Assembly: GCA_964441065.1 (NCBI GenBank)
Contig: CAYTWD010000001.1
Span: forward strand, 73,285-137,284
Length of the DNA stretch: 64,000 bases
Reading direction: 5' to 3'
From: an uncultured Candidatus Peribacteria bacterium
GTDB taxonomy: Bacteria > Patescibacteriota > Gracilibacteria > UBA1369 > 2-02-FULL-48-14
How positions within the stretch are numbered: position 1 is the stretch's first letter; each line of letters opens with the position of its first letter. Shown here in pieces: positions 6,095-49,354 of the stretch. The position numbers were made by a program, and so were the translations under genes. The notes beneath the pieces were generated by a model, which did not search any database, was not told the DNA's origin, and saw only the letters and a program-made list of their open reading frames with translations.

Positions 6095-6169
6095 GCTGAA
6101 TCAGTACAAACATTTGACAAACCCCTCCTTTTAGTCTAACGTTCAAAGCCTTTCTAGCTTTGTTCAGAT

Positions 6170-9385: not shown

Positions 9386-9403
9386 CTTTTTAATTTTATT
9401 AAT

Positions 9404-19523: not shown

Positions 19524-19544
19524 ATGTAGAATGATTTTCTACAT
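19524..19544. promoter_or_regulatory. Inverted repeat ATGTAGAA-tgatt-TTCTACAT abutting the TrmB-like start codon
   Basis: Perfect 8-bp arms in the divergent intergenic region between 19522 and 19688. A second inverted repeat, ATTTACATA (19590-19598) / TATGTAAAT (19620-19628), lies in the same region. Confidence 0.35.
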
Positions 19545-20680: not shown

Positions 20681-20691
20681 TTTTGATTTTT

Positions 20692-20973
20692 ATGACTCAA
20701 ACTTTGCCAATCAATAGTGTGTGCCAAGAAGCTCAGTGTGGTAAAAACTTTATAGTTATTCCTCAAGAAATGAAGTTTTATGAGAACAAGAAATTGCCTT
20801 TGCCAGATTACTGTCCCGCTTGTAGGCATAAACAGAGAATGGCACTTAGAACCGAAAGAACTTTATATAAAAGAAGCTGTGACAAATGCCAACAGTCAAT
20901 TTTGTCTGTGTATCCACAAGAATCTCCTTACAAAATTTATTGTCAAAAGTGTTTTTGGGAAAATATAGGCTAA
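20692..20973 (+). CDS. Stand-alone double zinc-ribbon module, the same module that caps the large Cys-rich paralogs
   Basis: MTQTLPINSVCQEAQCGKNFIVIPQEMKFYENKKLPLPDYCPACRHKQRMALRTERTLYKRSCDKCQQSILSVYPQESPYKIYCQKCFWENIG. The ORF track starts at TTG 20683, but ATG 20692 is the more likely start. Confidence 0.75.
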   Translation: MTQTLPINSVCQEAQCGKNFIVIPQEMKFYENKKLPLPDYCPACRHKQRMALRTERTLYKRSCDKCQQSILSVYPQESPYKIYCQKCFWENIG

Positions 20974-23018
20974 CTTACAATAGCCTTAATCCTTCTCACT
21001 CCGCTCGAACTCGCTTCCTCTTTCACGATTTTAAAGGAACCAAGTTCGCCGGTGTGATCAACGTGAGGGCCGCCGCAAATTTCTTTCGAAAAATCTCCCA
21101 TAAAATAAACCTTAACTTTTCCGCCCAGTTCGCCTTCATATTTATCAACGAAAATTCCCGTCGCGTTAATTTTTCTAGCCTCTTCAACAGTCATTTCTTT
21201 GAAGGAAACAGGATAATCGGCCTTAATTGCATCGTTCACGAATTTCTCAACTTTTGCCAACTCCTCGGCGGTCAATTTTCTGTCGAAATTAAAATCAAAT
21301 CGAAGCCTTTCTTGAGTAATATTTGATCCGCGTTGCTCAATGTGATTTCCAAAAAGTCTGCGCAAACTTTCAAGCATCAAATGAGTTGCCGTGTGTAATT
21401 TTCTACTTTCATGACTGTGATCCGCAAGTCCACCGGCGAATTTCTGCTCGGCTCCTGCTCGCGATTTTTCTTGATGTGCTTGATAGGCTTTATCGAAGCC
21501 TTCGCGGTCAACTTCAACTCCGCGTTCTTTCATAATCTCCACAGTCATTTCAAGCGGAAAACCAAAACTTTCGTAATAAAGAAAAGCTCGATCTCCGCGC
21601 AAAGTCCAACCCGATTCCCTCAAAAAATTCGCTTTTTCTCTCACCAGCCGAAGAGAATCTTCGGCCAATTCCTTACCTGCGGCTTCCCCCTTAAATTCAG
21701 CGCGCAATTTTCCCATCAAAGGCCTTAAAGTTTTATTGAAAACTTCCAAACATTCCGCGGAAGAAATCACAGTTGAAACCGCATTCAGTGCTTTTTCAAG
21801 CTGTGAAACCGTATTCTCGCTACTCAAAATTTCAAGCGCTTCTTTCACTCTTTCCACATCTTTTTCAATTTCAATTTCGCCGGCCGTTAAAGCATTTTGA
21901 AACTGTTCTTCTTCTTTTTTCAACTCGTCTAAAATTCTTTTTTCATATTTAATAAGTTCCTTGTAATAATCTCCGTAAATTCCCAAAAACAGTCTTGCGA
22001 TTTGAACCGTAAAACCTTCTGAAATTCCCATTTTTCTGCCGTGCCTTATCGCTCGACGGATAATTTTTCTAAGTACATAGCCCTGATCATTATTCGATGG
22101 AGTGACTCCACGATCGTCGCCCAAAATAAATACAGCGGCGCGCAAATGATCAGCCAAAATTCTTCCACCAACTTCATCATAATTCTTCGCGATTTCTTTG
22201 ATTCTTTTTATTACCGGCTCAAAAAGTTCGGTCTCAAAAGGCGTTTTTTTCTCTTGTAAAAGCGCTGCGACTCGCTCAAGACCCATTCCCGTGTCCACAT
22301 TTTTTTGCTTCAAAGGTGTGAATGTCCCGTCTTCATTTTTGTTGTACTGCATGAAAACGTCGTTCCAAATTTCCACAAATCTTCCGCACTCGCAATTTGG
22401 ATGACACTCTCCACTCGCGATTGGATATTTTGCAATTGCCTCCGCCGAAGCCTCGGGTTTGTGTTCATTCATCGAAAGTCCCGGACATTTATCATAAAAC
22501 ATCTCGGTATCCGGACCGCATGGACCGGTTAAACCTGCAGGTCCCCACCAGTTTTTTTTCTTTTCATAAAAATAAACCGTCATCCCAAGTTCCCGCCAAA
22601 TTTCCGCCGCTTCGTCATCACGAGGCGCGTTTTCATCTCCTTCAAAACATGTCACCAAAATTCGATTTTTATCAATTCCCAACTCGTTCGTCAAAAATTC
22701 GTAAGACATTTTTATAGCCTCTTCTTTGAAATAATCTCCAAGCGACCAATTCCCCAGCATCTCAAAAAAAGTAAGATGTGATTCATCTCCAACTTCGTCA
22801 ATGTCATCCGTTCGCAAACATTTTTGAACATCCACAAGTCGCTTTCCTTCGGGATGTTTTTCTCCCAACAAATAAGGCACAAGCGGATGCATCCCCGCAG
22901 TCGTAAATAAAACAGTCGGATCATTTTCCGGAAGCAAACTTGAGCCTTTTATCTCTCTATGCTCATGTTTTTCAACGAAGAATTTAATGAATTTTTGTCT
23001 GAGTTCATCTGCTTTCAT
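20970..23018 (-). CDS. alaS: Alanine--tRNA ligase, short form ending after the editing domain
   Basis: 682 aa. FTTAGMHPLVPYLLG, NWSLGDYFK, the editing-domain HTATHLM and CGGPHV motifs are present. The protein ends ..GVRRIKAIVS, where canonical enzymes continue into the C-Ala domain. Confidence 0.9.
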   Translation of the reverse strand: MKADELRQKFIKFFVEKHEHREIKGSSLLPENDPTVLFTTAGMHPLVPYLLGEKHPEGKRLVDVQKCLRTDDIDEVGDESHLTFFEMLGNWSLGDYFKEEAIKMSYEFLTNELGIDKNRILVTCFEGDENAPRDDEAAEIWRELGMTVYFYEKKKNWWGPAGLTGPCGPDTEMFYDKCPGLSMNEHKPEASAEAIAKYPIASGECHPNCECGRFVEIWNDVFMQYNKNEDGTFTPLKQKNVDTGMGLERVAALLQEKKTPFETELFEPVIKRIKEIAKNYDEVGGRILADHLRAAVFILGDDRGVTPSNNDQGYVLRKIIRRAIRHGRKMGISEGFTVQIARLFLGIYGDYYKELIKYEKRILDELKKEEEQFQNALTAGEIEIEKDVERVKEALEILSSENTVSQLEKALNAVSTVISSAECLEVFNKTLRPLMGKLRAEFKGEAAGKELAEDSLRLVREKANFLRESGWTLRGDRAFLYYESFGFPLEMTVEIMKERGVEVDREGFDKAYQAHQEKSRAGAEQKFAGGLADHSHESRKLHTATHLMLESLRRLFGNHIEQRGSNITQERLRFDFNFDRKLTAEELAKVEKFVNDAIKADYPVSFKEMTVEEARKINATGIFVDKYEGELGGKVKVYFMGDFSKEICGGPHVDHTGELGSFKIVKEEASSSGVRRIKAIVS

Positions 23019-35346: not shown

Positions 35347-36375
35347 ATGAGCAACGATATTAAAGATTTTGCAATCGCCACACTGGGGAGCCATACAGCT
35401 CTTCAAATACTCAAGGGTGCCAAAGAAGAGGGAATGAAAGCTATAGCAATTTGCACGAAGGAAACAAGAAAGCCATACGACAGTTACGGAGTCGCGGATG
35501 AAATTATAGAAATTGATTCCTTCGATAATTTTTTTGAAATCGAAAAGATTTTGATGGAGAAAAATGCAATTGTGATTCCACACGGGAGCTTTGTTAGCTA
35601 TCTTGGTCCTGAAAAAATCAAAAATAACTTGAAGGCGATGCATTATGGCTCAAAGGGAATTTTGATTTGGGAATCCGATCGTTCAATGGAAAGAGTGTGG
35701 CTTAAAGACGCGGGTTTAGATCTCCCTAAAATTTATAAAACACCTGAGGAAATCGACGGTCCGGCTATTGTTAAATTTCACGGAGCAAAGGGCGGATTCG
35801 GTTATTTTATAGCGCATTCACCTGAAGAATTCCACGAACGCATAAAAAAATTTAAAGATCCCGAAGATTACGTAATTCAAGAATATGTGGTTGGTGTTCC
35901 AATGTATGTTCATTATTTTCAATCAGCGCTCACAGGAGAACTCGAAATTATGAGCTTCGACAAACGTTATGAATCCAATGCCGATTCAATCGGACGAATC
36001 GCCGCAAAAGATCAAATTGCTGCAGATATTCAAACGAGTTACACAATTACCGGAAACATGCCGATTGTTGTGCGTGAATCAATGCTTCCAATGTTTTTTC
36101 AAATTGGCGAAGATGTTGTTAAAGCTTCGAGAAAACTCGAGGGCGTGCCAAAAGGTCTTTACGGACCGTTCTGTCTTGAAGGAATTATTGATCCAAATTT
36201 GAACTTCCGTGTTTTTGAAATTTCTGCAAGAATTGTTGCCGGAACGAATCCTTACACAAACGGTTCGCCTTACACTTGGTTGAAATACAACGAACCAATG
36301 TCCACGGGTCGCCGCATAGCTCGCGAAATTAAAACTGCAATCCAAACCGGTCGTTTACAAGATATTTTAGGATGA
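35347..36375 (+). CDS. purP: Archaeal-type FAICAR synthetase (formate- and ATP-dependent AICAR formyltransferase) PurP
   Basis: 342 aa. It aligns end to end, from memory, with Methanocaldococcus PurP: IATLGSHTALQILKGAKEEG, IPHGSF, WESDRS, IVKFHGAKGGFGYF, DKRYESNADS, ITGNMPIVVRESMLP, GPFCLEG, RIAREIK. Confidence 0.85.
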   Translation: MSNDIKDFAIATLGSHTALQILKGAKEEGMKAIAICTKETRKPYDSYGVADEIIEIDSFDNFFEIEKILMEKNAIVIPHGSFVSYLGPEKIKNNLKAMHYGSKGILIWESDRSMERVWLKDAGLDLPKIYKTPEEIDGPAIVKFHGAKGGFGYFIAHSPEEFHERIKKFKDPEDYVIQEYVVGVPMYVHYFQSALTGELEIMSFDKRYESNADSIGRIAAKDQIAADIQTSYTITGNMPIVVRESMLPMFFQIGEDVVKASRKLEGVPKGLYGPFCLEGIIDPNLNFRVFEISARIVAGTNPYTNGSPYTWLKYNEPMSTGRRIAREIKTAIQTGRLQDILG

Positions 36376-37517
36376 AATACACAATAGCCGTTCTCGGAGG
36401 TCACAGCGCATTAGACGTTTGCGCCGGAGCAAAAAAACACGGCTTCAAAACGCTCGCGGTTTGCCAAAAAGGTAGAGAAAAAACTTACGCCGAATATTAT
36501 AAAACTCGTGGAAAACTCGGCTGCATTGATGAGGTTCTTACTGTGGAAAAATTTTCCGACATCACAAAACCCGAAATCCAAAAAGAACTCAAAAAAAGAA
36601 ATGTAATTTTCATTCACAATCGTTATTTCTGGGTTTATTGCAATTTTGATGAAGTTGAGGACATAAAGAAATTTACTGCACCAATCTATGGTAATCGTAA
36701 ATTTGTTAAATTTGAGGAGAGAAATATAGGGAGAAATCAATATTGGTTGCTTCAACAAGCAAAAATAAGGACTCCAAAAGTAATAAGAGATGGACTTGTA
36801 GGTTTTGCTAACGAAAAAGATCTGAGAAAAGTATTAGACGACCACTTTGTTGTAAAAAAAGGTGGTCCTTTGATAGTAAAGGTTAATGAAGCACAACGAA
36901 AATACGAAAGAGCCTTCTTTATTATCAACTCGGAACACGATTACTTTGAAATAAGTGAAAGAATGATAAAAAATGGAGTAATAAATAGAGATATACTAAA
37001 TTCTGCATTAATTGAAGAGTTTGTAATTGGGGCACAGGTCAATTTCAACTTTTTTTACTCAACAATTAGTCAGAGATTAGAGTTGATGGGAACCGATGCT
37101 CGAAGACAAACAAGTTTAGATGGTTTCTTGAGACTTGATGCTGAAAGACAGTTAGAGTTATTAAAAAAAGGTTATAGACCATCAATGATTGAAACTGGGC
37201 ATTATTCAGTTACTATTAAAGAATCTCTAATAGAAAAAGCCTATGAAATCGGTGAGAAATTTGTGAAAGCAACAAAGGAGCATTATGGCCAATCCATAAT
37301 CGGTCCATTCGCACTTCAGGGTGCTGTTGCCTCTGAAAATGGCCGTGAAGAACTAGTAATTTTCGATGTCTCAATGCGAATTCCGGGCTCACCGGGAACA
37401 AAATTCACTCCATACACAAGTTATCTTTGGGGCGAACCCATGAGCTACGGCGAAAGAATCGCGATCGAAATTAAAGAGGCGATTAAGGCTAAGAAGCTGG
37501 ATCTAGTTTTGACATAA
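36372..37517 (+). CDS. Second, more divergent PurP-family ATP-grasp paralog
   Basis: 381 aa. IAVLGGHSALDVCAGAKKHGF, IGPFALQG, VFDVSMRIPGSPG and ERIAIEIKEAI parallel the PurP motifs. ATGA overlap with purP. Confidence 0.7.
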   Translation: MKYTIAVLGGHSALDVCAGAKKHGFKTLAVCQKGREKTYAEYYKTRGKLGCIDEVLTVEKFSDITKPEIQKELKKRNVIFIHNRYFWVYCNFDEVEDIKKFTAPIYGNRKFVKFEERNIGRNQYWLLQQAKIRTPKVIRDGLVGFANEKDLRKVLDDHFVVKKGGPLIVKVNEAQRKYERAFFIINSEHDYFEISERMIKNGVINRDILNSALIEEFVIGAQVNFNFFYSTISQRLELMGTDARRQTSLDGFLRLDAERQLELLKKGYRPSMIETGHYSVTIKESLIEKAYEIGEKFVKATKEHYGQSIIGPFALQGAVASENGREELVIFDVSMRIPGSPGTKFTPYTSYLWGEPMSYGERIAIEIKEAIKAKKLDLVLT

Positions 37518-37774: not shown

Positions 37775-37941
37775 ATATTACAGGTGATGTTTTGCCAAAT
37801 ATGTTTTATATAAATCGTATGTCAATGCAATTCTTTGCCTTCCTGAAAAATTCAGGAATCTTTCAGGACTTTGTAAGTTCTGAACGCTATCCTTATTACT
37901 TAATCCATAATATAATCTATATGAAAACATATATTGATTTC

Positions 37942-38169
37942 ATGAAAAAGAAACAACTTTTCACAGTTATAATTGAAGAAGACAACAATGGCTTCTTTGC
38001 TTATTGCCCACAGTTACAAGGTTGTTATACTCAAGGTGAAACTTACGAAGAGGCACTCTTGAATATTAAAGATGTGATAAAACTACATACGGAAGACAGG
38101 ATTGAGGAGGGGCAAACTTGGAGAAGCCCAAAGTCCATAAATGTCACTTCATTAGAGGTAAGCATTTAA
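37942..38169 (+). CDS. hicB: HicB-family antitoxin (UPF0150 fold)
   Basis: MKKKQLFTVIIEEDNNGFFAYCPQLQGCYTQGETYEEALLNIKDVIKLH matches the HicB N-terminal domain. The ORF-track start at 37792 adds an implausible leader. Confidence 0.7.
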   Translation: MKKKQLFTVIIEEDNNGFFAYCPQLQGCYTQGETYEEALLNIKDVIKLHTEDRIEEGQTWRSPKSINVTSLEVSI

Positions 38170-38259: not shown

Positions 38260-39780
38260 CTACTCCAATCCTTTCCCAAGCTTCCTAACCAGCTTCCACG
38301 TTTTTTCACGTATCGATTCAACGGTTTTCCAGCCCGCTCTGTAACACAAAACGTGTTGCTCCAAATCATTTCCAATTTTTCCACGAGCATTGTCTGAAAT
38401 CCCCAAGGTTTTACCTGTTGGCAAACCTGGATAAACGTCTAACATTGCATTAATTGATCCGTCAGCAAGTCTCATATTAAATGAGTCTTGATCAACAGCA
38501 TTTCCATCACTTGTGTTCAAAAAGTAAGCACCATTTTTCATTTTTCCAATCAACTCTTTGTTAACAAGTCCGTGAGCTTTGTGTGGTGCGACGCAAAGAC
38601 TAATGACATCCGAATCTTCAAATAATTCATCCAAATTCGCATATTCAAATCTTGGATCCAAAGTGTTTGGCGAATAGTATTTCACTTTCATTCCAAGCGT
38701 TTCTGCAATTTCCGCGGTTCGAGTTCCAATTCTTCCCAAACCAACAATCCCAAAAGTTTTATCTGCCAAATTCTCTTCAATATGAGCAAGCTCACTCACA
38801 TCAATTATTCGGTCATTCGGCAATAGATCCAGCCAAATCGGAGCTTTTTTTGTGTCGCAAATAAAGAATCCATCTTCCGTACAATCAGACATATTTTCAG
38901 TCGGAACCATCTCCATTTGAAATCCATCTCTCAAGATTTTTTCCAATCTCGCTTTTCCGGGCATTTTTGCATCCAAAATAGTAATTTTCTTGCCTTTCAA
39001 TAATTGCTCCGGAATTACTTCCTCAGGTTTTTTATTACCATTTATAAGCTCGCCATAAGTATCGGCGCTTCTTCCGAGTTTGTGAAAATGATGACTGAAC
39101 CGACCTCGTCTTGTGGCTTTTTCATTCTGCAAAAATTTTCTAAATTTTTTGAAAAGTTCACCAATAGTTCCAATCACAAAGTCATCTTCCGTATAAGCTT
39201 TCTCATTCGTGGATTTATTTCTTATCATTAACTCAATCATTCCTCCAACATTTAATTCGGAAACCGAATCGGTCCCGTAATCAGGAATGGAATCAACATA
39301 AATCCCTGCATTTTTTGCCATCGCCACATTCATTCTGTGTTCAAATTCATGAGTCCAACAAATAATACTTTTCATGTCGCCTTTTTTAATCCACTCTTTT
39401 AAAACGGAATCGGGAATTTCAGTCCAACAAGTGACAACACCATCCGCATCTTTAGTTTGATTCAACATAAATTGAGCAGTTCGGTTTTCTCTAATATCCG
39501 CCTCGGTCCAACATTGAATATTTCCCATTTTTGCCAAATGTTCATCTGAAATTCTGTCTATATTTTCAGGCAAACTACTTGGCCACATTCTCACGTTCGC
39601 AGTCGAATCGGATTGAAAATTCTCAGGCAGAGTCCAAGCTTTTCCATTTTCTTGCCATTTCAAAGGCACGCAGTCAATTTCAGCCTTGCCGCTTTTCATT
39701 AATTCACCCAATCCCTCAACGTGCTCAGGGTAGAAAATAACCGTATCCAGAACCTCTAAATGTTTGTAACCTTCTTTCAT
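38260..39780 (-). CDS. Atypical D-isomer-specific 2-hydroxyacid dehydrogenase-fold protein with a large insertion and substituted catalytic residues
   Basis: 506 aa. The NAD loop FGIVGLGRIGTRTAEIA is present. Signature 3 reads MKNGAYFLNTSDGNAVD, with Asp where the invariant Arg sits. DVYPGLP replaces DV..EP. About 150 extra residues lie between the substrate-binding lobe and the NAD lobe. Confidence 0.6.
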   Translation of the reverse strand: MKEGYKHLEVLDTVIFYPEHVEGLGELMKSGKAEIDCVPLKWQENGKAWTLPENFQSDSTANVRMWPSSLPENIDRISDEHLAKMGNIQCWTEADIRENRTAQFMLNQTKDADGVVTCWTEIPDSVLKEWIKKGDMKSIICWTHEFEHRMNVAMAKNAGIYVDSIPDYGTDSVSELNVGGMIELMIRNKSTNEKAYTEDDFVIGTIGELFKKFRKFLQNEKATRRGRFSHHFHKLGRSADTYGELINGNKKPEEVIPEQLLKGKKITILDAKMPGKARLEKILRDGFQMEMVPTENMSDCTEDGFFICDTKKAPIWLDLLPNDRIIDVSELAHIEENLADKTFGIVGLGRIGTRTAEIAETLGMKVKYYSPNTLDPRFEYANLDELFEDSDVISLCVAPHKAHGLVNKELIGKMKNGAYFLNTSDGNAVDQDSFNMRLADGSINAMLDVYPGLPTGKTLGISDNARGKIGNDLEQHVLCYRAGWKTVESIREKTWKLVRKLGKGLE

Positions 39781-39915
39781 AAATTGTTGTTATTGAACAA
39801 TGCAATAATATGCCAAGATGTCAAATATGTATAGTATAATAAGTCAACTAGTAAGTCTACTATTGCAATTACAGATTAAAAATGCTAAAATAAAGTGTCG
39901 ATTAATTAAGTCAAC

Positions 39916-40659
39916 ATGAATCAAAAACTGCTCGAAAAATTGGGAATGACCGCTCGTGAAGTTAAACTTTATCTAAAACTTTTGGAATTGGGTTCAAGCC
40001 CGGCAAACAACTTATCAAGACGTTTGGAAGAGAACAGGACTTCAACATACAGTCTACTTCAATCACTTCAAAAGAAGGGTTTTGTGACATACTCGCTCAA
40101 GCGAAACGTGAAATATTTTTACCCGATTGATCCGGGAATTCTTGTTGATCAATACGTCCACACTGCGAATAATCTTCAGTCCGCCCTTCCTGAACTGCTC
40201 GCTGTTTTTAATAAGTCCACCAACAAACCAAGAATTGCATTTTATGAAGGAGTGAACGGGATAAAACAACTTTGCGAGACGCTTCTTGAAGTACCCGGTT
40301 CCACCCGCTTTAGTTTTATGGGAGTTGATGAATCCACAATTCATCCGGAAATTAAAGAGTATTTTGAGACCGATTTTCTAAATAGACGAGTCGCCGCAGA
40401 TATTAAATATAAAGCGATTGTAACAGGTTTAATTCCCTTTGCTTCCGGCTACAAAAAAACTCATGAAGCTCAACTTCGCGAGCTGAAATGGGTCGATCCC
40501 AAAAAATTTCCAATGAATATTCAAATCGACATTTATCCTCACAATAAAGTTGCAATTTATTCTTACAATAAAGACGAAATGATGGGCATTGTTATTGAAC
40601 ACGAATCTTTCTACTCAACAATGAGATCGGTTTTTCAGATTGCGTGGAGTGGCCTTTAA
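39916..40659 (+). CDS. TrmB-family HTH transcriptional regulator (paralog 2 of 3)
   Basis: 247 aa. REVKLYLKLLELGSSPANNLSRRLEENRTSTYSLLQSLQKKGFV and FYEGVNGIKQL are present. Confidence 0.75.
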   Translation: MNQKLLEKLGMTAREVKLYLKLLELGSSPANNLSRRLEENRTSTYSLLQSLQKKGFVTYSLKRNVKYFYPIDPGILVDQYVHTANNLQSALPELLAVFNKSTNKPRIAFYEGVNGIKQLCETLLEVPGSTRFSFMGVDESTIHPEIKEYFETDFLNRRVAADIKYKAIVTGLIPFASGYKKTHEAQLRELKWVDPKKFPMNIQIDIYPHNKVAIYSYNKDEMMGIVIEHESFYSTMRSVFQIAWSGL

Positions 40660-41828
40660 ATCACTCCCACTTTTCTTAAACTAATTAAACTTAAACCGCA
40701 AAAAATAAATAGCAATCCTGCGGATGCGAGTAAAGCATTTTGAATTCCCCATAAATCGCAAATCGTTCCCAAAAGTGGCGAGAAAATAAAGAAAATTCCG
40801 CGCGAAAAAAAGCTACGAATTGAAAGCACCGTCGCTCGTCTGTCATTGCTGATTATTTGCTGAACATAATCATAAAATAATGGCATGGTTAAACCCCAAA
40901 GTGAACTTGTGATTACCAATAAAGGAATCGCCCAAAGTGTTTTAATATTTGCCAATAATATCCAATCCAAAATAGCAAAAAGTGGAAGTAATATAATGCA
41001 AAGTTTTTGACCAAGAAAATCCTCAATTTCCTTTCCATACTTAGACCCCAAAGCAGATCCGACATTCATCGCGCCAATAACAAATCCAAAATAAAAAATC
41101 GGCAGTTCAATAAATTCCATATATTTTTGATAAAGCCAAAAAGTTATGAAGAAAAATCCGAATGGAATTGACGAGTAAATGATAAATAATCCCAATTTTT
41201 TATTTTCAAGAAAAGTTTCTCTAAATATTTTTTTGAAGTGCGACCACTTTTCGGCTTCCATCTCATGTTCTTTTGGCTCAATCAAAGTCAGATTAAGCAA
41301 AAACCAGATTATCCAAGTGATTATTGTTAAATGAAATGGAAACCTCATAGAAACCACGGCCATCATTGCACCAAGCACATTGCCCACCAATGATCCAAAT
41401 CGACCATAGAAGAATATATTACCCTGAACCTTCTTATATTTTTCGCTTTTTTCGCCCTCCACAAGGCTTTCAAAGGCCATTGCTTCGGTTGTGCCGGAAG
41501 TTAAACTGCTACCAATACCAATAATTATTTCGCCAACCAAAAACCAAAAATATAAATTCGAGTACACGAATATTAAAAGACCCAAAAGTTGGATCAAAGA
41601 GCCAACTATTAAAGTCTTTTTTCTACCGATTCTATCGGAAAAATAACCTGATGGAATTTCAAAGATCACAAGCATTGCCGCGAAAGCACCTTCAAGCATC
41701 AAAATTTCTCTCATTGAAAATCCAAGCCCGCTAAAGAAAGGAATCATTATCGGAATGAAGAAAACCAGCTCTGAAAAGAACTGCATCAAATATAATTTCG
41801 GTATATTTTGAAGGATTTTTGAGTTCAT
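40656..41828 (-). CDS. MFS transporter
   Basis: 390 aa with about 12 hydrophobic segments. The loop 2-3 motif GYFSDRIGRKKTL is present. Confidence 0.75.
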   Translation of the reverse strand: MNSKILQNIPKLYLMQFFSELVFFIPIMIPFFSGLGFSMREILMLEGAFAAMLVIFEIPSGYFSDRIGRKKTLIVGSLIQLLGLLIFVYSNLYFWFLVGEIIIGIGSSLTSGTTEAMAFESLVEGEKSEKYKKVQGNIFFYGRFGSLVGNVLGAMMAVVSMRFPFHLTIITWIIWFLLNLTLIEPKEHEMEAEKWSHFKKIFRETFLENKKLGLFIIYSSIPFGFFFITFWLYQKYMEFIELPIFYFGFVIGAMNVGSALGSKYGKEIEDFLGQKLCIILLPLFAILDWILLANIKTLWAIPLLVITSSLWGLTMPLFYDYVQQIISNDRRATVLSIRSFFSRGIFFIFSPLLGTICDLWGIQNALLASAGLLFIFCGLSLISLRKVGVI

Positions 41829-41837
41829 TTTTTGAGA

Positions 41838-42593
41838 TTATTCTCCCTCACCATAAAAGTACTTACCGTAAGTATTTGCAAGTGCTTCATATGCCCTATC
41901 AAACCCATCGTTTAAATCAACTTTACCACCTAAAATAATGCTTTCACCGTCTGTAACAAGCATAGGTATCCCACGTAAACCATGACCATATTGTGAAAAT
42001 CTTTTTTTAGATCCAACAAATCTACCTGATACATTCTCAGCATATTCAATTTCATCTTTAGCGATTGGTTTGCAAAGAAGAGCGCCTATATCAAGCGAAA
42101 TTTGTTTTGCGATTTTATCAGCCATATTTTTTGAGCCCACAAAAATTGTGAATATTTTCCCATCTTCAATATCTCCACCATTCATACATTTATGGCAGAT
42201 GTTATTATCAGTTAGATAATCAGAAACTTTCTGCACATCCTTAATTGCGACATTTAAATGTAATTTGTGGCCTACAGCTATATTTTTTTCATCTAAAAAT
42301 TCAGTAGTTTCACCTTTTTTCCCAAGATCAAACCTTCCATATGATTTAAGTTTTTCAGTCCATATTTTATCTTTAATCTTCCACTCCGACTTATTTTTTG
42401 GCAAGTCTGGATTTTCTTTACCATTAGAGTTTGGATATTGATCCTCAAGGTTTTGCAGTGTAGCCAATTTTGCTTTATATCTTGTTCTCCCAACAATGTT
42501 CTGAGTATTTTTTGGTACATCTAACCACCATCTCTTTTTTTCCGTTACAGGTTTCGGGCTTACTCTCTCCCACCATTTATCAACATTAGTCAT
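41838..42593 (-). CDS. Hypothetical protein with a KLHLNV...GKIFTIF motif pair
   Basis: 251 aa and soluble, 5 nt downstream of the ATPase gene. VGHKLHLNVAIKD ...(32 aa)... DGKIFTIFVGS recalls the GWK(L/I)H(V/I)S ... GKF(I/V)T(I/V)YP pattern I associate with HopA1 / LanKC-N lyase-like domains. This is from memory and unverified. Confidence 0.55.
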   Translation of the reverse strand: MTNVDKWWERVSPKPVTEKKRWWLDVPKNTQNIVGRTRYKAKLATLQNLEDQYPNSNGKENPDLPKNKSEWKIKDKIWTEKLKSYGRFDLGKKGETTEFLDEKNIAVGHKLHLNVAIKDVQKVSDYLTDNNICHKCMNGGDIEDGKIFTIFVGSKNMADKIAKQISLDIGALLCKPIAKDEIEYAENVSGRFVGSKKRFSQYGHGLRGIPMLVTDGESIILGGKVDLNDGFDRAYEALANTYGKYFYGEGE

Positions 42594-42598
42594 ATTTT

Positions 42599-44842
42599 CT
42601 AAATCAAAGGCATTTCAAACTCTGCGGCTTCTTCAATAACTTCATTCTTCGCCACAATCTCACCGGGTTCTTCAATTTTTCCTTCGTCCCATTTCTTCAA
42701 CATTTCTTCAACTTCTTCACGAGGATGGCAGTAGGCCGCGCGCGAAATTTCAATAATCTCACGAGTTTTATCTTCGGGATTATATTTGATGTCTAAAGTG
42801 CGACCGGAAAAGGCCTCGGAAAGTTCACCTTGCACAGACATTTTTGTATAAAATTCTCGAACCCCCAAGTTAATAATATCTCGAACATTGAAAATCGGAG
42901 TGTATTCTTCGGCAAGAATAACAGCATCTTCGGCACCCACACGGAAGTTCACAATTGTACCAACGTTACCAAAAACCGTTTTTCTAACAAGATCGGAAAG
43001 CTGACCAACATATTGGTGGGCAATCGTCATGTTCAATCTGTATTTTCTGGCTTCAGACAAAATCTCCGAAAAAGTATTTGTGGCAAAATTCTGGAACTCA
43101 TCCACGTAGAAATAAAAATCGCTACGTTCGTCTTCGCGCATGTCCGCACGAGCCATCGCCGCCTGATAAATTTTCGTGATAATCATGGCACCCACCAATT
43201 GAGCGTTTTCCTCACCAAGAAGCCCTTTTGAGACTTTCATGAGAAGAATTTTTTTGTTGTCCATTATGTCGCGAATATTGAAAGTATTCACCGGCTGACC
43301 GATAATATTTCGAATCATATTTGTTGAAACCAACTGTCCGACTTTATTCAAAAGCGGTGTGATCGCCTCGCTATCAAATTTTTCACTCCATCCGGCAAAT
43401 TCATTAACCCAGAAATTTTTAACAACGGAATCCTGAATCCTCGCCACAATTTTTTGACGGTAATTTTTATCGGAAAGCATTTTCAAAATCGAAAGCACAG
43501 TCGTGTTTGGTGAGTCTAGAAGCGCCAAAGTCGTGTATCGTAAAACGTGCTCCAATCGATCAGACCAGTTTCCACCGAAGAGTTTTTTGAAAATATCAAT
43601 GAAACCAATTGTGATCTGCATTTTGAATTTTTCATCAACTTTTTCGAGCGGATTAAAGGCTATAGGGAACTCAGTATCAGAAGGATCAAACAAAATCACG
43701 TCCTTCATTCGTTCCTCCGGAATCATTCTCAAAATGTTATCAACAAGATCTCCGTGCGGATCCAAAACACCAATTCCTTTTCCCGCTTTAATATCGGACT
43801 GAATCAAAAGTTCAAGCATTTTTGATTTACCGGTACCGCTCTTCCCCACAACATATAAATGTCTTCTTCTGTCTTCGCGCTTGATACCAAAGTGCTGAAA
43901 ATTGTTGTGATAATTCGTCATACCAAACATACAAACGTCTTGTCCGCCGGTCGGTAAATCCTTCGGTGGCTCATGTTTTTTCGCCATAACATGCACAACG
44001 TGTGGAACGTGATCCGCATTTGGAATATGAAAGAATGTCGCCAATTCGTGATCACTAACAATCGCGCCGTTATCAATATGTCGGCTTTGATATTCTCGCA
44101 AAAAAGCAGCTCCTTTTTTGACTTTTTCCAATTCAAAATTATTCGCGTCGGTTTTATTAAATTGAAAAAATGCTTTTGAAAGCGCTAGCAAATTCTTTCT
44201 TGCCTCATCTTCTTTATCTGAAACAGCGCCAAATCTAATTTGAACTTTAAAAGGTTCATGCTCCGATTTATGAATGAAAAGCGATTCCTCTTCTTTGTAA
44301 TATTCCGCTTTTTCTTTCATTCGCACGTAATTCTTCAATCGGAATCTTCTCAAAAATCTATTAAGTCTCATCCTGAATTTTCGCAAGAAATGATATTTCC
44401 AATCTTCATCAATCGGTACGGTTAAAATCTGCACCCAAGCATGATCATTTCTTCCCAATTTTGAAATCACAGAGAAAATTGAAGAAAGCGAATCCACTTC
44501 AAATTCATCGTATGCTTTGAAGGGATAAATATCGCTCATCGCGAATCTTGCGGTTGTTCCCAACAGGATATGTTTTTTGGGATCGTAAACTGTCGTGTAG
44601 TCTTTTACAGGTCTAATTTCCGCGTCAGGGTAGCTTGAATAAATCAAACCCTCCACAAGTTTTGTGATGTCCGGCTCGCAACCGATAAAGAAATATGTGT
44701 ACTGATTGTAACCAAAAAGTTCAAAAGATAAATGCTTGTGATGCGCAGTTTTATGCAAATTCTGCAAAAACTGTAGAAACAGACTTTCTTTTTTCGGATT
44801 TTCGGCCGTTCCCTGTGGGACTATTACATGTAAAAAATCCAT
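42599..44842 (-). CDS. Soluble VirD4/TraD-like (type IV coupling-protein-like, HerA/FtsK superfamily) P-loop ATPase
   Basis: 747 aa. Walker A is VVGKSGTGKSKML and Walker B is FYFYVDEFQNFAT. The arginine-finger-like region is TIAHQYVGQL. The N-terminal 300-aa domain has no transmembrane helices. Confidence 0.7.
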   Translation of the reverse strand: MDFLHVIVPQGTAENPKKESLFLQFLQNLHKTAHHKHLSFELFGYNQYTYFFIGCEPDITKLVEGLIYSSYPDAEIRPVKDYTTVYDPKKHILLGTTARFAMSDIYPFKAYDEFEVDSLSSIFSVISKLGRNDHAWVQILTVPIDEDWKYHFLRKFRMRLNRFLRRFRLKNYVRMKEKAEYYKEEESLFIHKSEHEPFKVQIRFGAVSDKEDEARKNLLALSKAFFQFNKTDANNFELEKVKKGAAFLREYQSRHIDNGAIVSDHELATFFHIPNADHVPHVVHVMAKKHEPPKDLPTGGQDVCMFGMTNYHNNFQHFGIKREDRRRHLYVVGKSGTGKSKMLELLIQSDIKAGKGIGVLDPHGDLVDNILRMIPEERMKDVILFDPSDTEFPIAFNPLEKVDEKFKMQITIGFIDIFKKLFGGNWSDRLEHVLRYTTLALLDSPNTTVLSILKMLSDKNYRQKIVARIQDSVVKNFWVNEFAGWSEKFDSEAITPLLNKVGQLVSTNMIRNIIGQPVNTFNIRDIMDNKKILLMKVSKGLLGEENAQLVGAMIITKIYQAAMARADMREDERSDFYFYVDEFQNFATNTFSEILSEARKYRLNMTIAHQYVGQLSDLVRKTVFGNVGTIVNFRVGAEDAVILAEEYTPIFNVRDIINLGVREFYTKMSVQGELSEAFSGRTLDIKYNPEDKTREIIEISRAAYCHPREEVEEMLKKWDEGKIEEPGEIVAKNEVIEEAAEFEMPLI

Positions 44843-44887
44843 AGAGTAATTATACCTTATTATAGCATCCGCGTCAACCTGCTAATA

Positions 44888-46501
44888 TCAGTAAATTTCA
44901 TTCAAATAACATGCTTCACAATACACTTTTTCAGGTCTATCCCAAAGTTGCCTTGGTCTTCTTCTCGCCATTCTATCCAAATGCCTTTCATCAGGACATT
45001 TTCTTGGAATTGGCAAATTCATCTTCCTGTAAAATGCCAATTCTTGAGGAATAATTTTATATAATTTGCCGCTACTTTCACACTTTAAAATCTGCTTTGT
45101 GATTTCATCACCAACTTCAGTTATATTATCTTGCATATTCAAATAAGCTCCTTGGTAATTATTTACTTTATCATCTTCATGCCATTTATAACTGCGCGCC
45201 AAAGCCTCCTCTTTACTAAGTGGAAACCATTCATTCGCCAAACTTTCATTATATGCGAATGCGCTTAGACTTATTGGAAAAAACTCACCCCATTCGCCCG
45301 TTTTTTTAAGATGCTCAATAATTTGAGGCAACAGTTTTTCATATTCTTCTTTGCTGTATTGCTTATTCAAAATGCAATATTGCTTCTGTTTTAAACCCAC
45401 ACATCCGAAGCAGTTCTTTGTTGAAAAACAATGATCACAATAACTAAGATCCGCACAATTACTCCAACATAAATTACAAAATTTTAAGTTATAAATATCA
45501 TATCCACAGGCCTGACATTCATAAGTTTCACTTGCATTCGATCCCCAATAACTGTGATCCATCGAATTCTTAACCTTAACCTCCAAATTATTTGAATATT
45601 TCACGTCTTCGCAATCAAAACACTCAAAAATTTCCACACAATTTCTGGAATTATTTATATAATCACCGCTAACATTTTCATTCATTGTCCCATAGAAATT
45701 TTTCACAATCATCGATTTTTTCATTTCCATAAATTTTTCAACGGCATCTTTATAAGATTCATATGAACCCAAATTCAATTCTCTTTTAAATTTTTCATAT
45801 TCTTCTTTTGTAACTTGTTTATTAAAAATATGATATTCAACATTTTTTAAACCCCAAGAAAAAATACAATTTTTCACACCTATACAATTTTTTAAAAACA
45901 TTGAATCCGAGCAATTTCTACATTCTTCAGAGTAAATTAAGTTATAACAATACTGGCAATCCACTGTTTCGTAGCAGAGTTCATCATGCAGAGCATTCTC
46001 ATTATCTATACAATCTTTGCAAAAATTTATCCAAGAACCGTAATAACAATCTTCGCAATGATTTGTTGAAAAAACTAAATAACAATTTTTATTTCTACTC
46101 GCGCAATTACAATATTGTGAATTTTCCATTGGCTGTTGTTGTTGCAATGCCAACCTCGGAACCTTGTTTCTAAGCTCCTCATATTGTTCAAAAAAACTGC
46201 GAGAAAAATCAAAATCCATTCCGTGGCTTAGTGGATCCCACTTATCGCTCCACCACTCTTCAATATCGTAAACAGGATATGGTTTATCGGTAGACGCTGA
46301 AGAAATAATTTGCTTCCCGCTCAAATCACATTTTCTATGATAAAGATGTCTTTCATTTCTAAACGCCAATCTTCTCCGCATTCTTTCTTCCGGACACAAA
46401 GTTGGCAAAGGAACTCCCATTTTTTCATAAAAAGCCTGATCTTCCTCAGAAATAACGAACTCTTTTCCCGAAACGGCACATGTTTTTTTAATTGAAGGCA
46501 T
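44888..46501 (-). CDS. Cys-rich double-zinc-ribbon-capped family protein, paralog P1
   Basis: 537 aa with the family architecture. The N-terminal ribbon ligands are degenerate (CAVSGK, CPEER). The last zinc knuckle is deleted at the C-terminus (..LWDRPEKVYCEACY). Confidence 0.8.
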   Translation of the reverse strand: MPSIKKTCAVSGKEFVISEEDQAFYEKMGVPLPTLCPEERMRRRLAFRNERHLYHRKCDLSGKQIISSASTDKPYPVYDIEEWWSDKWDPLSHGMDFDFSRSFFEQYEELRNKVPRLALQQQQPMENSQYCNCASRNKNCYLVFSTNHCEDCYYGSWINFCKDCIDNENALHDELCYETVDCQYCYNLIYSEECRNCSDSMFLKNCIGVKNCIFSWGLKNVEYHIFNKQVTKEEYEKFKRELNLGSYESYKDAVEKFMEMKKSMIVKNFYGTMNENVSGDYINNSRNCVEIFECFDCEDVKYSNNLEVKVKNSMDHSYWGSNASETYECQACGYDIYNLKFCNLCWSNCADLSYCDHCFSTKNCFGCVGLKQKQYCILNKQYSKEEYEKLLPQIIEHLKKTGEWGEFFPISLSAFAYNESLANEWFPLSKEEALARSYKWHEDDKVNNYQGAYLNMQDNITEVGDEITKQILKCESSGKLYKIIPQELAFYRKMNLPIPRKCPDERHLDRMARRRPRQLWDRPEKVYCEACYLNEIY

Positions 46502-48144
46502 TAGTAAACCAATTTTAAATAACAGTCGTCACAATATACTTTTTCTTGGCGTTCAGGTTCAAAAGTGCTTTCTATTTCAATCTGACAACCATAACATTTT
46601 CGTTTCCAAAGGCTTTGAGGGTTTCTCATTGAAAGTCTGTCTTTGTGCCTTTGATTTGGACATCGCAGAGGTATTGGCAACTTCATTTTTCTATAAAACT
46701 CCAACTCTTGTGGAATTAATTTATAAAGTTTCCCGCTTACTTCACATTTTAAAATTTGCTTTAAAATTTCGTCGCTAACTTCATTAATATTTTTTGGAAT
46801 TTCAGCATGTGGGCCTTGATATGAACTAATTTCATCCTCATCTTTCCAATGATAACCCAACTTTAAGGCCTCCTCTTTTTCCAGTGGAAAATATTCATTT
46901 GCAACAGTCTCGTTATATCCAAATGCAGATTTATTAATTGGAAAAAACTCACCCCATTCGCCGGTCTTCTTCATATGATCAATAATTCGTGCCACAAGTT
47001 TTTCGTATTCTTCTTTTGAATATTGTTTATTTAAAATGCAATACTCTGAATTTTTCATTCCACTGCATCCAAATAAGTTTTTTGAATTATGACAATTATG
47101 AGAGTAGAAACTATCAGATAGTTTATTGCAAAACATTGAGAAAAGCAGATTTCTATTTTGATATGCCGCCAAATATTCATAACAAAGTTCATTCTCCTCA
47201 GTGAAATTATTGTCGTAACAATCCTTCAAATCAACCACTTGCATACAATAGGCAACGTCTTCACATTTATCTGTAAAATACGAATTTTTAGCATTTTTTG
47301 ACTGAAAAATATAATTTCCGCTTACATTTTCCACATTTCTACTCTGCATAAATCTGTGAGGGATTTCCAATTTTAATTTCTGCAACTCAGTTTTTAATTT
47401 TTGAGTGACTTCGGGATCGCACAAATTCAATTTTCTTTTAAACTCCTCGTAATCTTCTTTACTTAATTGCTTGTTAAAAACGCAATATTGCTTTTTTCTA
47501 AGACCCGCGCATCCAATGCAGTCACTGCATCCTTGCAAATCATAACAATAAATCAGATGATCTGAAGTGTGACAGTCTTGGCAGTAAAAACACTCGTAAA
47601 GTTTTCTTGAATCTACACATTCATAAGAATACTGACATTCTCGAACGACTAATGTATCAAGGCATTCAAGTGAGTAATAAGGGGAACCATAATAACATTT
47701 GTCAGAATATACGGATCCAAAAATCAAATAAGAATCTTTCACATTACCAACGTAATTACAAAAACTGCTATTTTCCGAATTCCATACTGACAGTGCAAGT
47801 TGCGGCACGTCTTGATAAAGTTCCTTAAATTGTTCAAAAAAAGGTCGATTAAAATCAAAATCACGCCCGTAATCGAGAGGATCCCACTTGTCACTCCACC
47901 ATTCATCAACATCATAAACGGTAATCTCACCGTCTTCCGAATAATTTGAAATTAAACTTTTTCCACTTAGGCCGGATTTTCTGTGATAAAGACTGCGTTC
48001 GTTTCTATGTGCGTATCTTCTCCGTCTTCTCTCCTCCGGACACAAAGTTGGCAATGGAACTCTTACTTTTTCATAAAAAGCTTGATCCGCATCTGTGATC
48101 ACGAACTCTTTTCCTGAAACGGTACATGTTTTTTTAATTTCCAT
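46501..48144 (-). CDS. Cys-rich double-zinc-ribbon-capped family protein, paralog P2
   Basis: 547 aa, 30 Cys by hand count. A TAATG junction joins it to P1, and it starts 3 nt after the csaA stop. Confidence 0.8.
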   Translation of the reverse strand: MEIKKTCTVSGKEFVITDADQAFYEKVRVPLPTLCPEERRRRRYAHRNERSLYHRKSGLSGKSLISNYSEDGEITVYDVDEWWSDKWDPLDYGRDFDFNRPFFEQFKELYQDVPQLALSVWNSENSSFCNYVGNVKDSYLIFGSVYSDKCYYGSPYYSLECLDTLVVRECQYSYECVDSRKLYECFYCQDCHTSDHLIYCYDLQGCSDCIGCAGLRKKQYCVFNKQLSKEDYEEFKRKLNLCDPEVTQKLKTELQKLKLEIPHRFMQSRNVENVSGNYIFQSKNAKNSYFTDKCEDVAYCMQVVDLKDCYDNNFTEENELCYEYLAAYQNRNLLFSMFCNKLSDSFYSHNCHNSKNLFGCSGMKNSEYCILNKQYSKEEYEKLVARIIDHMKKTGEWGEFFPINKSAFGYNETVANEYFPLEKEEALKLGYHWKDEDEISSYQGPHAEIPKNINEVSDEILKQILKCEVSGKLYKLIPQELEFYRKMKLPIPLRCPNQRHKDRLSMRNPQSLWKRKCYGCQIEIESTFEPERQEKVYCDDCYLKLVY

Positions 48145-48147
48145 AAT

Positions 48148-48480
48148 TTAAAATAATTTTGAACCCAAAGGCACTTCTTTATCCGGTTGCGCCAAAATAA
48201 CATCACCATTTTCATCAGGAAATCCAAGGGTCAGAACTTCGGAAATGAATGGACCGATTTGACGAGGTGGAAAGTTGGTGACGCCCATAACCATTCTCCC
48301 AATTAAATTCTCTTTTGAATAATGTTTTGTTATTTGAGCGGATGATTTTTTCAAACCAATTTCAGCCCCAAAATCGATCGTAAGTTTATAAGCCGGCTTT
48401 CTGGCCTCGGGGAAGCTTTCAACTTCCACAATTCGCCCCGCATGTATGTCTAATTTATTGAAATCTTCAATCGTCGTCAT
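48148..48480 (-). CDS. csaA: CsaA-type tRNA-binding domain protein (Trbp111/EMAPII-like OB fold)
   Basis: 110 aa. FNKLDIHAGRIVEVESFPEARKPAYKLTIDFG.EIG.KKSSAQIT......LIGRMVMGVTNFPPRQIG.F.SEVL.LG aligns along its whole length with B. subtilis CsaA as I remember it. Confidence 0.8.
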   Translation of the reverse strand: MTTIEDFNKLDIHAGRIVEVESFPEARKPAYKLTIDFGAEIGLKKSSAQITKHYSKENLIGRMVMGVTNFPPRQIGPFISEVLTLGFPDENGDVILAQPDKEVPLGSKLF

Positions 48481-48569: not shown

Positions 48570-48595
48570 AACTGTAGAAACTTTTTTACAACAAT

Positions 48596-49354
48596 ATGCT
48601 TTCTGAAGAATTAATTAGGCTCGGACTGTCAAAAGAAGAGGCGAAAGTCTATTTAACTGTCTTGGAATTGGGAGGCTCTTTTGCAAGCGCGATTGCCAGA
48701 AAATCGAATACGCCGCGTGTAAATTGTTATTATATTTTGGAAAGCCTGAGAGAGAAGGGACTGATAACTTCAAATTTAAAAGGAAATGTAAAATTCTTTG
48801 TTGCTGAACCGCCTCAAGTTTTTGTGAATCAAGTTGAAGAAAAATTTATTCGAGCGCAGAAAATTCTTCCCGAATTGCTATCAGTAACTAACGCTCTCGC
48901 CTTCAAGCCAATTATCCGTTCTTATGAAGGCCTTGACGGTATTAAACAAATTTTTGAGCAGACTCTTGAGGCAAAATCAGAAGTGCTGGGCTACACAAAT
49001 CTTGAAGCGCTGGCTAATCTTTTGCCTGATTACTTACCCGGATATATTAAAAAAATGGTGAAAAAAAGAATAAAGATTCGTCTACTTTCACCTTCAACCG
49101 ATGCCGCAAGAAAATTTATTAAAAAATTCTATCCGAAAAATTTCCCCGAAGAATTAGTCGAAATTTTATTTGTAAACCCAAATGAATTCGCCTTCGAAAA
49201 TCAAATCTCAATTTACGATAACTTCGTCGCAATCATGTCTCTTAATCCGCAGGAATTGATGGGTGTCCATATGCAATCAGGTGTATACGCGCGTACTCAA
49301 AAGGCGATTTTTGACCTTTCTTGGCTAGGCGCGACTTCATTCGTGGCTCAGTAA
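48596..49354 (+). CDS. TrmB-family HTH transcriptional regulator (paralog 3 of 3)
   Basis: 252 aa. EEAKVYLTVLELGGSFASAIARKSNTPRVNCYYILESLREKGLI and SYEGLDGIKQIF are present. Confidence 0.75.
   Translation: MLSEELIRLGLSKEEAKVYLTVLELGGSFASAIARKSNTPRVNCYYILESLREKGLITSNLKGNVKFFVAEPPQVFVNQVEEKFIRAQKILPELLSVTNALAFKPIIRSYEGLDGIKQIFEQTLEAKSEVLGYTNLEALANLLPDYLPGYIKKMVKKRIKIRLLSPSTDAARKFIKKFYPKNFPEELVEILFVNPNEFAFENQISIYDNFVAIMSLNPQELMGVHMQSGVYARTQKAIFDLSWLGATSFVAQ

Follow-up and report, generated by a model that had tools for sequence, protein, structure and literature searches.

Among the closest described relatives of the system reported here are the type IV coupling proteins (T4CPs) of Patescibacteria, in which thousands of genes for VirD4-like ATPases stand without an attached secretion system. 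The available part of a recent survey counts 5,713 VirD4-like T4CP homologues in 2,918 genomes, only 148 of them near virB4, and states that exaptation of these 'orphan' T4CPs to another role 'cannot be ruled out' (PMC12102498, 2025); in that part it names no partner genes. Here we describe Cys-rich gene arrays and a TrmB-like regulator that are tied to one such orthogroup and are concrete candidate partners for it. The DNA analysed, referred to throughout as the window, is a 64-kb stretch from an uncultured Candidatus Peribacteria bacterium (contig CAYTWD010000001.1), and all coordinates below are window positions. On its minus strand a 7.8-kb string (40656-48480) carries, in order, csaA, two genes for the Cys-rich paralogs P2 (46501-48144, 547 aa) and P1 (44888-46501, 537 aa), a gene for a soluble 747-aa P-loop NTPase of the VirD4/VirB4 superfamily (42599-44842; hereafter the ATPase), a gene for a 251-aa protein and a gene for an MFS transporter. 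We find that this string is a composite rather than one operon. Its conserved core is, with high confidence, a chromosomal module made of Cys-rich arrays, a divergent TrmB-like regulator and a separately promoted ATPase, and the module is found in Peribacteria/Peregrinibacteria-type Patescibacteria. The explanation we favour as a whole, a module in which the ATPase works with the Cys-rich proteins, has in our estimate a probability of roughly 45%.

The module was recognized from the surroundings of the ATPase gene in related genomes. We collected 80 ATPase loci from species-representative Peribacteria/Peregrinibacteria genomes, with 10 kb on either side, and mapped the neighbourhoods by tblastn and by unsupervised clustering of open reading frames (ORFs; 81 loci), two methods that agree. 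Upstream counts refer to the 69 loci with at least 1.8 kb of sequence upstream of the ATPase. At least one co-oriented Cys-rich gene (range 1-6) lies upstream of the ATPase in 55 of these 69 loci; tblastn places a Cys-rich gene within 700 bp of it in 47 of 69, and by ORF order the ORF directly upstream is Cys-rich in 46 loci. Clustering recovered just two recurrent families around the ATPase: the Cys-rich proteins, with 235 members in 61 of 81 loci, and the TrmB-like regulators, with 38 in 29 of 81. With few exceptions the downstream genes bear no relation to one another. Since the gene downstream belongs mostly to a rare or singleton family (46 loci) and is often convergent, the conserved unit ends at the ATPase. 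The co-oriented array is kept beside the ATPase down to ~60% ATPase identity, and because it was kept while everything else around the ATPase was reshuffled, we take the adjacency to reflect function.

The gene order in the complete genome of Ca. Peribacter riflensis shows the same layout as the window. In the available part of its supplementary gene table (PMC4736985), genes 666-658, encoding proteins of 550-570 aa, are followed by gene 657, a 748-aa COG0433 ATPase; a TrmB gene is embedded among genes 666-658, and one of these was annotated by the authors as 'C-rich... Zinc finger... transcription factor??'. The same part lists, under genes 268, 304, 599 and 657, at least three COG0433-type ATPases (748, 825 and 869 aa) and, elsewhere in the genome, a separate VirB4-like gene of 716 aa; among the ATPases seen there a Cys-rich array precedes the 748-aa one only. 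The 'cysteine-rich proteins' discussed in that 2016 paper are another set, large and secreted, and its Table S4 does not contain this array (PMC4736985). The literature searched on the Cys-rich family, on DUF8128 and on VirD4 in Peregrinibacteria holds no description of the module, which appears as an undescribed pairing around a known kind of ATPase. PADLOC, Pfam and the Protein Data Bank (PDB) likewise hold no matching system, as the preliminary description of this DNA, made from the letters alone, had surmised.

P1 and P2, which that description correctly singled out, are two of five intact Cys-rich copies in the window. The other three lie directly upstream on the same strand in a tight array that begins with P5 (52635-54218, 527 aa, 7.8% Cys) and continues, after a 0-nt gap, with P4 (50997-52634, 545 aa) and, with a 4-nt overlap, P3 (49348-51000, 550 aa). 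Between the two arrays stands a TrmB-like regulator gene (48596-49354, plus strand), divergent from csaA-P2-P1, whose 3′ end overlaps that of P3 by 7 nt. Similar arrays are common. In 79 metagenome loci fetched with the Cys-rich family as query, arrays hold 1-10 copies, which are always co-oriented (0 of 1181 long high-scoring segment pairs on the opposite strand). The gap between adjacent Cys-rich genes has a median of 4 nt and is at most 20 nt in 83 of 126 cases; with short gaps and strict co-orientation, the arrays behave like operons. There are several arrays per genome, one of them abutting the ATPase, and in the metagenome loci we found no recurrent partner of the arrays other than TrmB-like genes. 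The paralog types are old and under constraint: relatives of the P2 type are 52-74% identical, compared with ~40% identity between paralogs. The family, which has no annotation, has more than 7,000 database entries, and no member was detected in a scan of 2.9 million viral contigs. The arrays of two metagenome loci, with seven and four tandem ORFs of ~580 aa (L147, 1911-15239, and L150, 4699-11695), are intact only when UGA is read as sense (tables 25 or 4), which indicates that the family reaches UGA-recoded lineages; neither is followed by an ATPase.

The ATPase has a conserved promoter of its own. The best sigma-70-like match within 39.5-55 kb of the window, TTGACG-17-TATAAT (11/12), occupies the 45-nt spacer between P1 and the ATPase (44877-44849, minus strand), with its -10 element ending 6 nt before the ATPase ATG. 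In related loci a median of ~70 nt separates the ATPase from the last Cys-rich gene, and a promoter-like element of at least 9/12, often TGGTATAAT, is present in 29 of 34 such spacers (85%) versus 2 of 36 comparable spacers (6%) between Cys-rich genes (Fisher p=3e-12). The preliminary description saw no internal promoter or terminator in the string: the second half of this statement stands, no internal terminator being predicted, and the first does not. A further promoter-like site, TGTACA-16-TATAAT with a TG, faces csaA-P2-P1 (48503-48530, minus strand; 10/12 with extended -10), and a TTTACA-N17-TAnnAT-like element faces the array at the same place in several related genomes. As read from these signals, the transcription units in the window are most likely P5-P4-P3, csaA-P2-P1 and ATPase-251aa-MFS, of which csaA-P2-P1 would use the array promoter, csaA having been inserted behind it. 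Read-through between units is possible because no terminator is predicted between them. In three loci (L001, at 9290-9628, L017 and L018) the ATPase is separated from the last Cys-rich gene by an inserted ORF of ~112 aa on the other strand, whose sequence presumably resembles a PemK/MazF-type toxin.

The regulator has its own recurrent signals. TrmB-like genes stand at both flanks of the string, the divergent one between the arrays and one at 39916-40659 (plus strand), which is convergent with the MFS gene (4-nt overlap) and is not tied to an array. Both encode proteins of ~250 aa and carry the TrmB helix-turn-helix domain (51-54 bits; PF01978, 50.8 and 53.5 bits, cut-off 25.6); in neither was the C-terminal sugar-binding domain of characterised TrmB detected, and they reach 34-45 bits on equivalog models whose cut-offs are 600-650. 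Such regulators, which the preliminary description had noted at both ends of the string, do belong with the arrays, and counterparts of the 48596-49354 gene (43-80% identity) stand at the same place in many genomes. The intergenic regions between TrmB-like genes and arrays have in common a palindrome (TGTAGAA-N-TTCTACA and variants) placed directly at the start of the TrmB-like gene; it is present in 29 of 68 TrmB-like 5′ regions compared with 2 of 68 controls. The window has just two copies of the strict palindrome, with 0 expected by chance: at 48573-48590 (TGTAGAAACTTTTTTACA), 5 nt upstream of the start codon of the regulator between the arrays, where it looks like an operator, and at 19525-19543 (TGTAGAATGATTTTCTACA). 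A variant, TGTCGATTAATTAAGTCAACA, precedes the TrmB-like gene at 39916-40659 (39896-39916), and no palindrome of this type was found before the ATPase. The module thereby supplies testable DNA elements, two promoters and one palindrome.

The second strict palindrome belongs to a TrmB-like gene at 18737-19522 (minus strand), which is divergent from a truncated, frame-broken Cys-rich copy at 19688-20973 (plus strand). A 330-aa ORF in this copy spans both central halves of the protein, and a 96-aa ORF in another frame corresponds to the C-terminal Zn module; nothing is left of the linker or of the N-terminal module. The copy looks like a decaying pseudogene. Recoding of a stop codon, with read-through joining its two parts (19688/20683), was considered and rejected, as the two ORFs do not share a reading frame and genetic code 11 gives a clean reading of the window. 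Because a TrmB-like gene with the palindrome stands beside a Cys-rich copy here too, a divergent pair of TrmB-like and Cys-rich genes looks like the basic unit of the family.

The Cys-rich proteins are ~550 aa long, net acidic and contain 4.4-9.5% Cys; they have no signal peptide and no transmembrane or hydrophobic segment, as expected of soluble proteins. They are internally duplicated at two levels. Homology links the N-terminal Zn module to the C-terminal one (E 1e-9 to 1e-18) and central half A to central half B (E 1e-10 to 1e-19). All CxxC pairs of the end modules are kept in P4 and P5 (in P5, all 16 Cys), and many are lost in P1, P2 and P3: P2 has Cys at just 2 of the 8 Zn-ligand positions of its N-terminal module, and P1 has lost Cys from its end modules, with a 17-aa deletion in the C-terminal one. 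Each end module carries an invariant cluster of Arg residues (R39, R42, R43 and R47; R499, R503 and R507). Between Cys residues of the central part, distances that are multiples of 3 are over-represented (2.2- to 4.2-fold) and all others under-represented (0.1- to 0.5-fold), and the repeat unit is 12 residues, CxxCxxSxxLxx. In the AlphaFold2 (AF2) model of P2, which is confident (predicted local distance difference test, pLDDT, 83; predicted template modelling score, pTM, 0.85), strands are spaced 10-12 residues apart. Repeat and model together suggest that the centre may fold as a tight solenoid with Cys ladders. Foldseek found no significant structural relative of the P2 model in PDB or BFVD; local BFVD matches of ~38 aa are to 'zinc-ribbon domain proteins' (root-mean-square deviation 0.5-0.6). 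The last ~30 aa of P2 and P3 match PF23477 below threshold (22.2 and 21.0 bits; cut-off 27), TIGR04272 is also matched below threshold (18.6 bits; cut-off 36) with a similar motif layout, and some homologues carry PF13451. The predicted Cys-laddered 12-residue solenoid flanked by Zn modules is a structure worth solving.

The ATPase is one of the orphan T4CPs of Patescibacteria, and it is annotated as a VirD4-like T4CP homologue of this group in NCBI. It scores above the Pfam cut-offs for PF02534 (T4SS-DNA_transf; 39 bits, cut-off 20.1), PF10412 (TrwB_AAD_bind; 27.9, 20.5), PF12696 (TraG-D_C; 23.1, 22) and DUF87, and below every NCBIfam equivalog cut-off (best match NF045973, 52.4 bits against 250). 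Walker A (GKSGTGKS, residues 333-340) and Walker B (DE, 581-582) are invariant. The protein has no transmembrane anchor (top 19-residue Kyte-Doolittle mean 1.00, no window above 1.6), and its N-terminal domain of ~300 aa is soluble and corresponds to PF26449 in homologues. It is 60-97% identical to proteins of metagenome-assembled genomes labelled Peribacteria, Peregrinibacteria, Gracilibacteria or Patescibacteria, and roughly 386 species-level genomes scored positive for a relative of it. Its structural model is mediocre (pLDDT 68) and contains a helical insertion (residues 404-514) inside the nucleotide-binding domain. With this model Foldseek returned TrwK/VirB4 (E 3e-13 over ~870 aligned columns, at a TM-score of only ~0.25), TrwB and HerA (1e-8) and DotL (2.5e-7); PDB searches with the single sequence and with a profile matched only the Walker A stretch of TrwB, and the VirB4-specific Pfam and NCBIfam models (CagE/TrbE/VirB) gave no match. 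Neither a relaxase nor a VirB4-type type IV secretion system (T4SS) was found within 10 kb on either side in the 80 loci or in the 64-kb window, and the rest of the window holds no T4SS, pilus or competence genes. PADLOC gave weak ATPase matches to mad8 and HerA, no match for the Cys-rich proteins, csaA, the 251-aa protein or the MFS transporter, and no multi-component defence system. A PHROGs scan gave weak ATPase matches along with PHROG families of unknown function; the phage genomes searched by tblastn yielded functionally uncharacterised Bacillus phage proteins at 21-24% identity, an uninformative result, and the scan of viral contigs yielded a single ATPase match, at 25% identity.

We propose that selection keeps the adjacency since the ATPase works with the Cys-rich proteins. 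The latter would form a repertoire of interchangeable clients or adaptors, with constant Arg-rich Zn-ribbon end modules serving as handles and specificity carried by the variable Cys-laddered solenoid cores. A hexameric ATPase, expressed independently of the arrays from its own promoter, would take them up for remodelling or pass them on, and a TrmB-like repressor would switch the arrays. The parts of this proposal differ in strength. On the sequence evidence, ATPase and Cys-rich proteins are probably coupled in function; to see in the Cys-rich proteins its clients or adaptors, with the ATPase as their handler, is a tentative and rather doubtful step; and the most specific version, a repertoire of metal- or Cys-stapled beta-solenoid cargo or adaptors serviced by an exapted, membrane-free T4CP-like hexameric motor, is improbable. 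Were the cargo or adaptor reading true, it would amount to a new protein-handling or delivery system and the first role assigned to orphan T4CPs of Patescibacteria, with a possible tie to the symbiotic lifestyle of Peribacteria and Gracilibacteria.

Several observations weigh against a working partnership of ATPase and Cys-rich proteins. It is gene neighbourhood that points to their interaction. One sub-clade (L021, L023, L027, L033 and L037) has a different synteny and no adjacent array, and of the arrays whose 3′ end is visible only 9 of 37 stop at the ATPase. A dedicated orthologue next to the ATPase was sought and rejected, with same-position best hits at 30.8% against 29.7% expected. Owing to its own promoter, the ATPase does not require co-transcription with the array. 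Named Cys-rich matches come only from Peregrinibacteria/Peribacteria/Gracilibacteria-type records, and VirD4-like ATPases, widespread in Patescibacteria (PMC12102498), range wider; for this reason the ATPase probably does not depend on the Cys-rich family. Finally, no translocon, relaxase or pilus genes lie nearby in the loci or the window, and stably folded, metal-stapled proteins would be odd as secretion substrates.

Some of these points are what one would expect if the adjacency were historical, the family having arisen upstream of a slow-evolving housekeeping ATPase and expanded by tandem duplication, with the two acting independently. A separately promoted ATPase, arrays that mostly lie elsewhere, the unspecific paralog beside the ATPase, the sub-clade without an adjacent array and VirD4-like ATPases well beyond the lineages in which the Cys-rich family is seen all fit such a history. 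We nevertheless regard it as unlikely: the array persists to ~60% ATPase identity despite reshuffled surroundings, and chance would, by a rough estimate only, place a co-oriented array next to the ATPase in well under 1% of genomes.

The partnership could alternatively be with nucleic acid. The Cys-rich proteins would then bind DNA or RNA through their Arg-rich Zn-ribbon ends, as bridging or nucleoid proteins, regulators or sensors of foreign nucleic acid, and the ATPase would be a DNA translocase on the same substrate. The invariant Arg clusters of both end modules, the likeness of the ATPase to TrwB, HerA and FtsK-type DNA pumps, its weak PADLOC matches and the presence of tRNA-binding csaA in the unit in the window and two other loci would agree with this. 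Yet the Cys-rich proteins are net acidic, several paralogs have lost most of their Zn ligands, csaA is not a conserved neighbour here, genes for nucleases, methylases, relaxases or defence were not found close by in the loci or the window, and the annotation labels are automatic superfamily tags, and we consider the nucleic-acid role distinctly unlikely.

The preliminary description had taken the whole string for a single operon, and comparative data largely refute the model of six genes acting as one RNA- or export-related system, which is now very improbable. Its raw observations were reproduced: all six minus-strand ORFs were found at the coordinates it gave, the gaps are 3, -1, 45, 5 and 9 nt, and the csaA, MFS, TrmB-like and VirD4-type ATPase labels hold in profile scans, which assign P1, P2 and the 251-aa protein to practically no family. 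The short gaps, the lack of a predicted terminator inside the string and the order ATPase-251aa-MFS, common to the window and its closest relative (L001), are what spoke for one operon. They are outweighed by the conserved internal promoter before the ATPase and by the fate of the other three genes. At this place csaA occurs in only 2 of 80 loci (L008 and L018), and the 251-aa and MFS genes stand beside the ATPase in only 1 of 80 (L001), so these three are lineage-specific passengers and not system parts. Of the neighbourhood singled out as a comparative check, the co-oriented Cys-rich and ATPase genes thus proved conserved and csaA did not. The suggested connection to tRNA through csaA and alaS is coincidental: tRNA and Rfam scans of the whole window gave no hits, and the broken Cys-rich copy, said to end inside the 3′ end of alaS, merely shares a 4-nt convergent stop overlap with it.

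The passengers themselves are of known or weakly recognizable kinds. The tRNA-binding OB-fold protein CsaA (48148-48480, minus strand), at the head of the P2-P1 transcription unit, has full-length profile matches (NF007495, 177.5 bits, cut-off 117; TIGR02222, 157.9, cut-off 119.65). The MFS transporter (40656-41828, minus strand, 390 aa) matches PF07690 with 105 bits (cut-off 33.4) and has 56 overlapping hydrophobic 19-residue windows above threshold. The 251-aa protein (41838-42593, minus strand) belongs to a small family of 251 representative sequences, and its C-terminal ~150 aa also occur inside giant proteins of 807 to 7,844 aa (including P0242, P0261 and P0310), as is often the case for effector or toxin domains. 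The lyase motif noted earlier in this protein has weak support: the family profile matches the LanKC lyase domain with E ~1, RamC_N matches 10 of 40 members (best E 0.0048), and K110, H112, K135 and R191 are invariant, residues that may correspond to the catalytic K-x-H...K...R of phospho-Ser/Thr lyases (OspF/SpvC, LanKC/RamC). Its link to the ATPase was not borne out, as in the one context examined a relative stands alone between rplK and nusG. A RiPP (ribosomally synthesized and post-translationally modified peptide) or lanthipeptide-like cluster was considered and rejected, since the Cys-rich 'precursors' would be ~550 aa long and the lyase-like and MFS genes are not conserved here.

That the locus is what remains of a mobile element, a conjugative system or an island of anti-phage defence is likewise very improbable, for despite the T4CP-type signature of the ATPase, its distant homologues in Bacillus phages and the weak PADLOC matches, its surroundings are core chromosome without an integrase, relaxase or VirB4 gene close by, the viral contigs hold no Cys-rich member and one 25%-identity ATPase match, and 60-97% ATPase identity across the fetched Peribacteria/Peregrinibacteria genomes fits vertical descent.

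The rest of the window is core chromosome, with genes for FtsW, MurG, PurH, two PurP-like proteins, PurN, MutL, alanyl-tRNA synthetase (AlaRS), a 2-oxoacid:ferredoxin oxidoreductase and a serine dehydratase. The PurP-like pair (35347-37517) consists of two tandem genes with DUF1246 and DUF1297, which we take to denote PurP-type FAICAR synthetase, best known from archaea; 12 related loci (cluster c3) have such a pair on the downstream side of the ATPase. The alaS ORF (20970-23018) encodes only 682 aa, compared with ~870 aa for a typical bacterial AlaRS, and its C-terminal part may be missing or encoded elsewhere. A 506-aa protein (38260-39780) carries the NAD-binding domain of D-2-hydroxyacid dehydrogenases in its C-terminal third only, behind a long unannotated region, and its gene and the TrmB-like gene at 39916 diverge. 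At 37792-38169 lies an ORF for a HicB-like antitoxin of 125 aa, with no obvious HicA among nearby ORFs of at least 60 aa, and of two neighbouring ORFs at 2756-9385 (1112 and 1071 aa) only the second has any Pfam match, to a few TPR repeats.

Compared with described systems, the parts of the locus each resemble something known to a limited extent. The 251-aa protein may be weakly akin, by its sequence, to the lyase domain of class III lanthipeptide synthetases (LanKC/RamC). The C-terminal ~30 aa of P2 and P3 are like the zf_Tbcl or CxxC-x17-CxxC treble-clef domains (PF13451, PF23477 and TIGR04272), models that cover less than 7% of a Cys-rich protein, have no known function and score below their curated cut-offs. 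For the solenoid core the nearest analogue is the beetle antifreeze protein TmAFP, a Cys-laddered beta-helix with 12 residues per turn. The period of 3 in Cys spacing within a 12-residue unit and the 10-12-residue strand distance in the AF2 model would be consistent with such a fold; unlike TmAFP, the Cys-rich proteins are cytoplasmic, without a signal peptide, their Cys positions are replaceable between paralogs, and neither sequence nor Foldseek similarity to this type was detected.

The ATPase resembles two known groups. With VirB4/TrwK ATPases it may share the layout of an N-terminal domain followed by a C-terminal ATPase; like them it lacks a transmembrane segment, and they are its best full-length Foldseek match. 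It differs from them in that this match has a TM-score of ~0.25 with a mediocre model and in that no VirB4-specific profile is matched; the table of the reference Peribacteria genome, in its available part, lists a VirB4-like gene apart from it. From the T4CPs (VirD4/TrwB/TraD/TraG) it departs by a soluble N-terminal domain of ~300 aa in place of the N-terminal transmembrane domain, by having no relaxase or VirB4 gene nearby and by its scores below the NCBIfam equivalog cut-offs. We also consider identity of 60-97% across the fetched genomes unusual for a T4CP. It nonetheless shares with T4CPs their Pfam models, the Walker motifs, the helical insertion and the Foldseek matches to TrwB and DotL.

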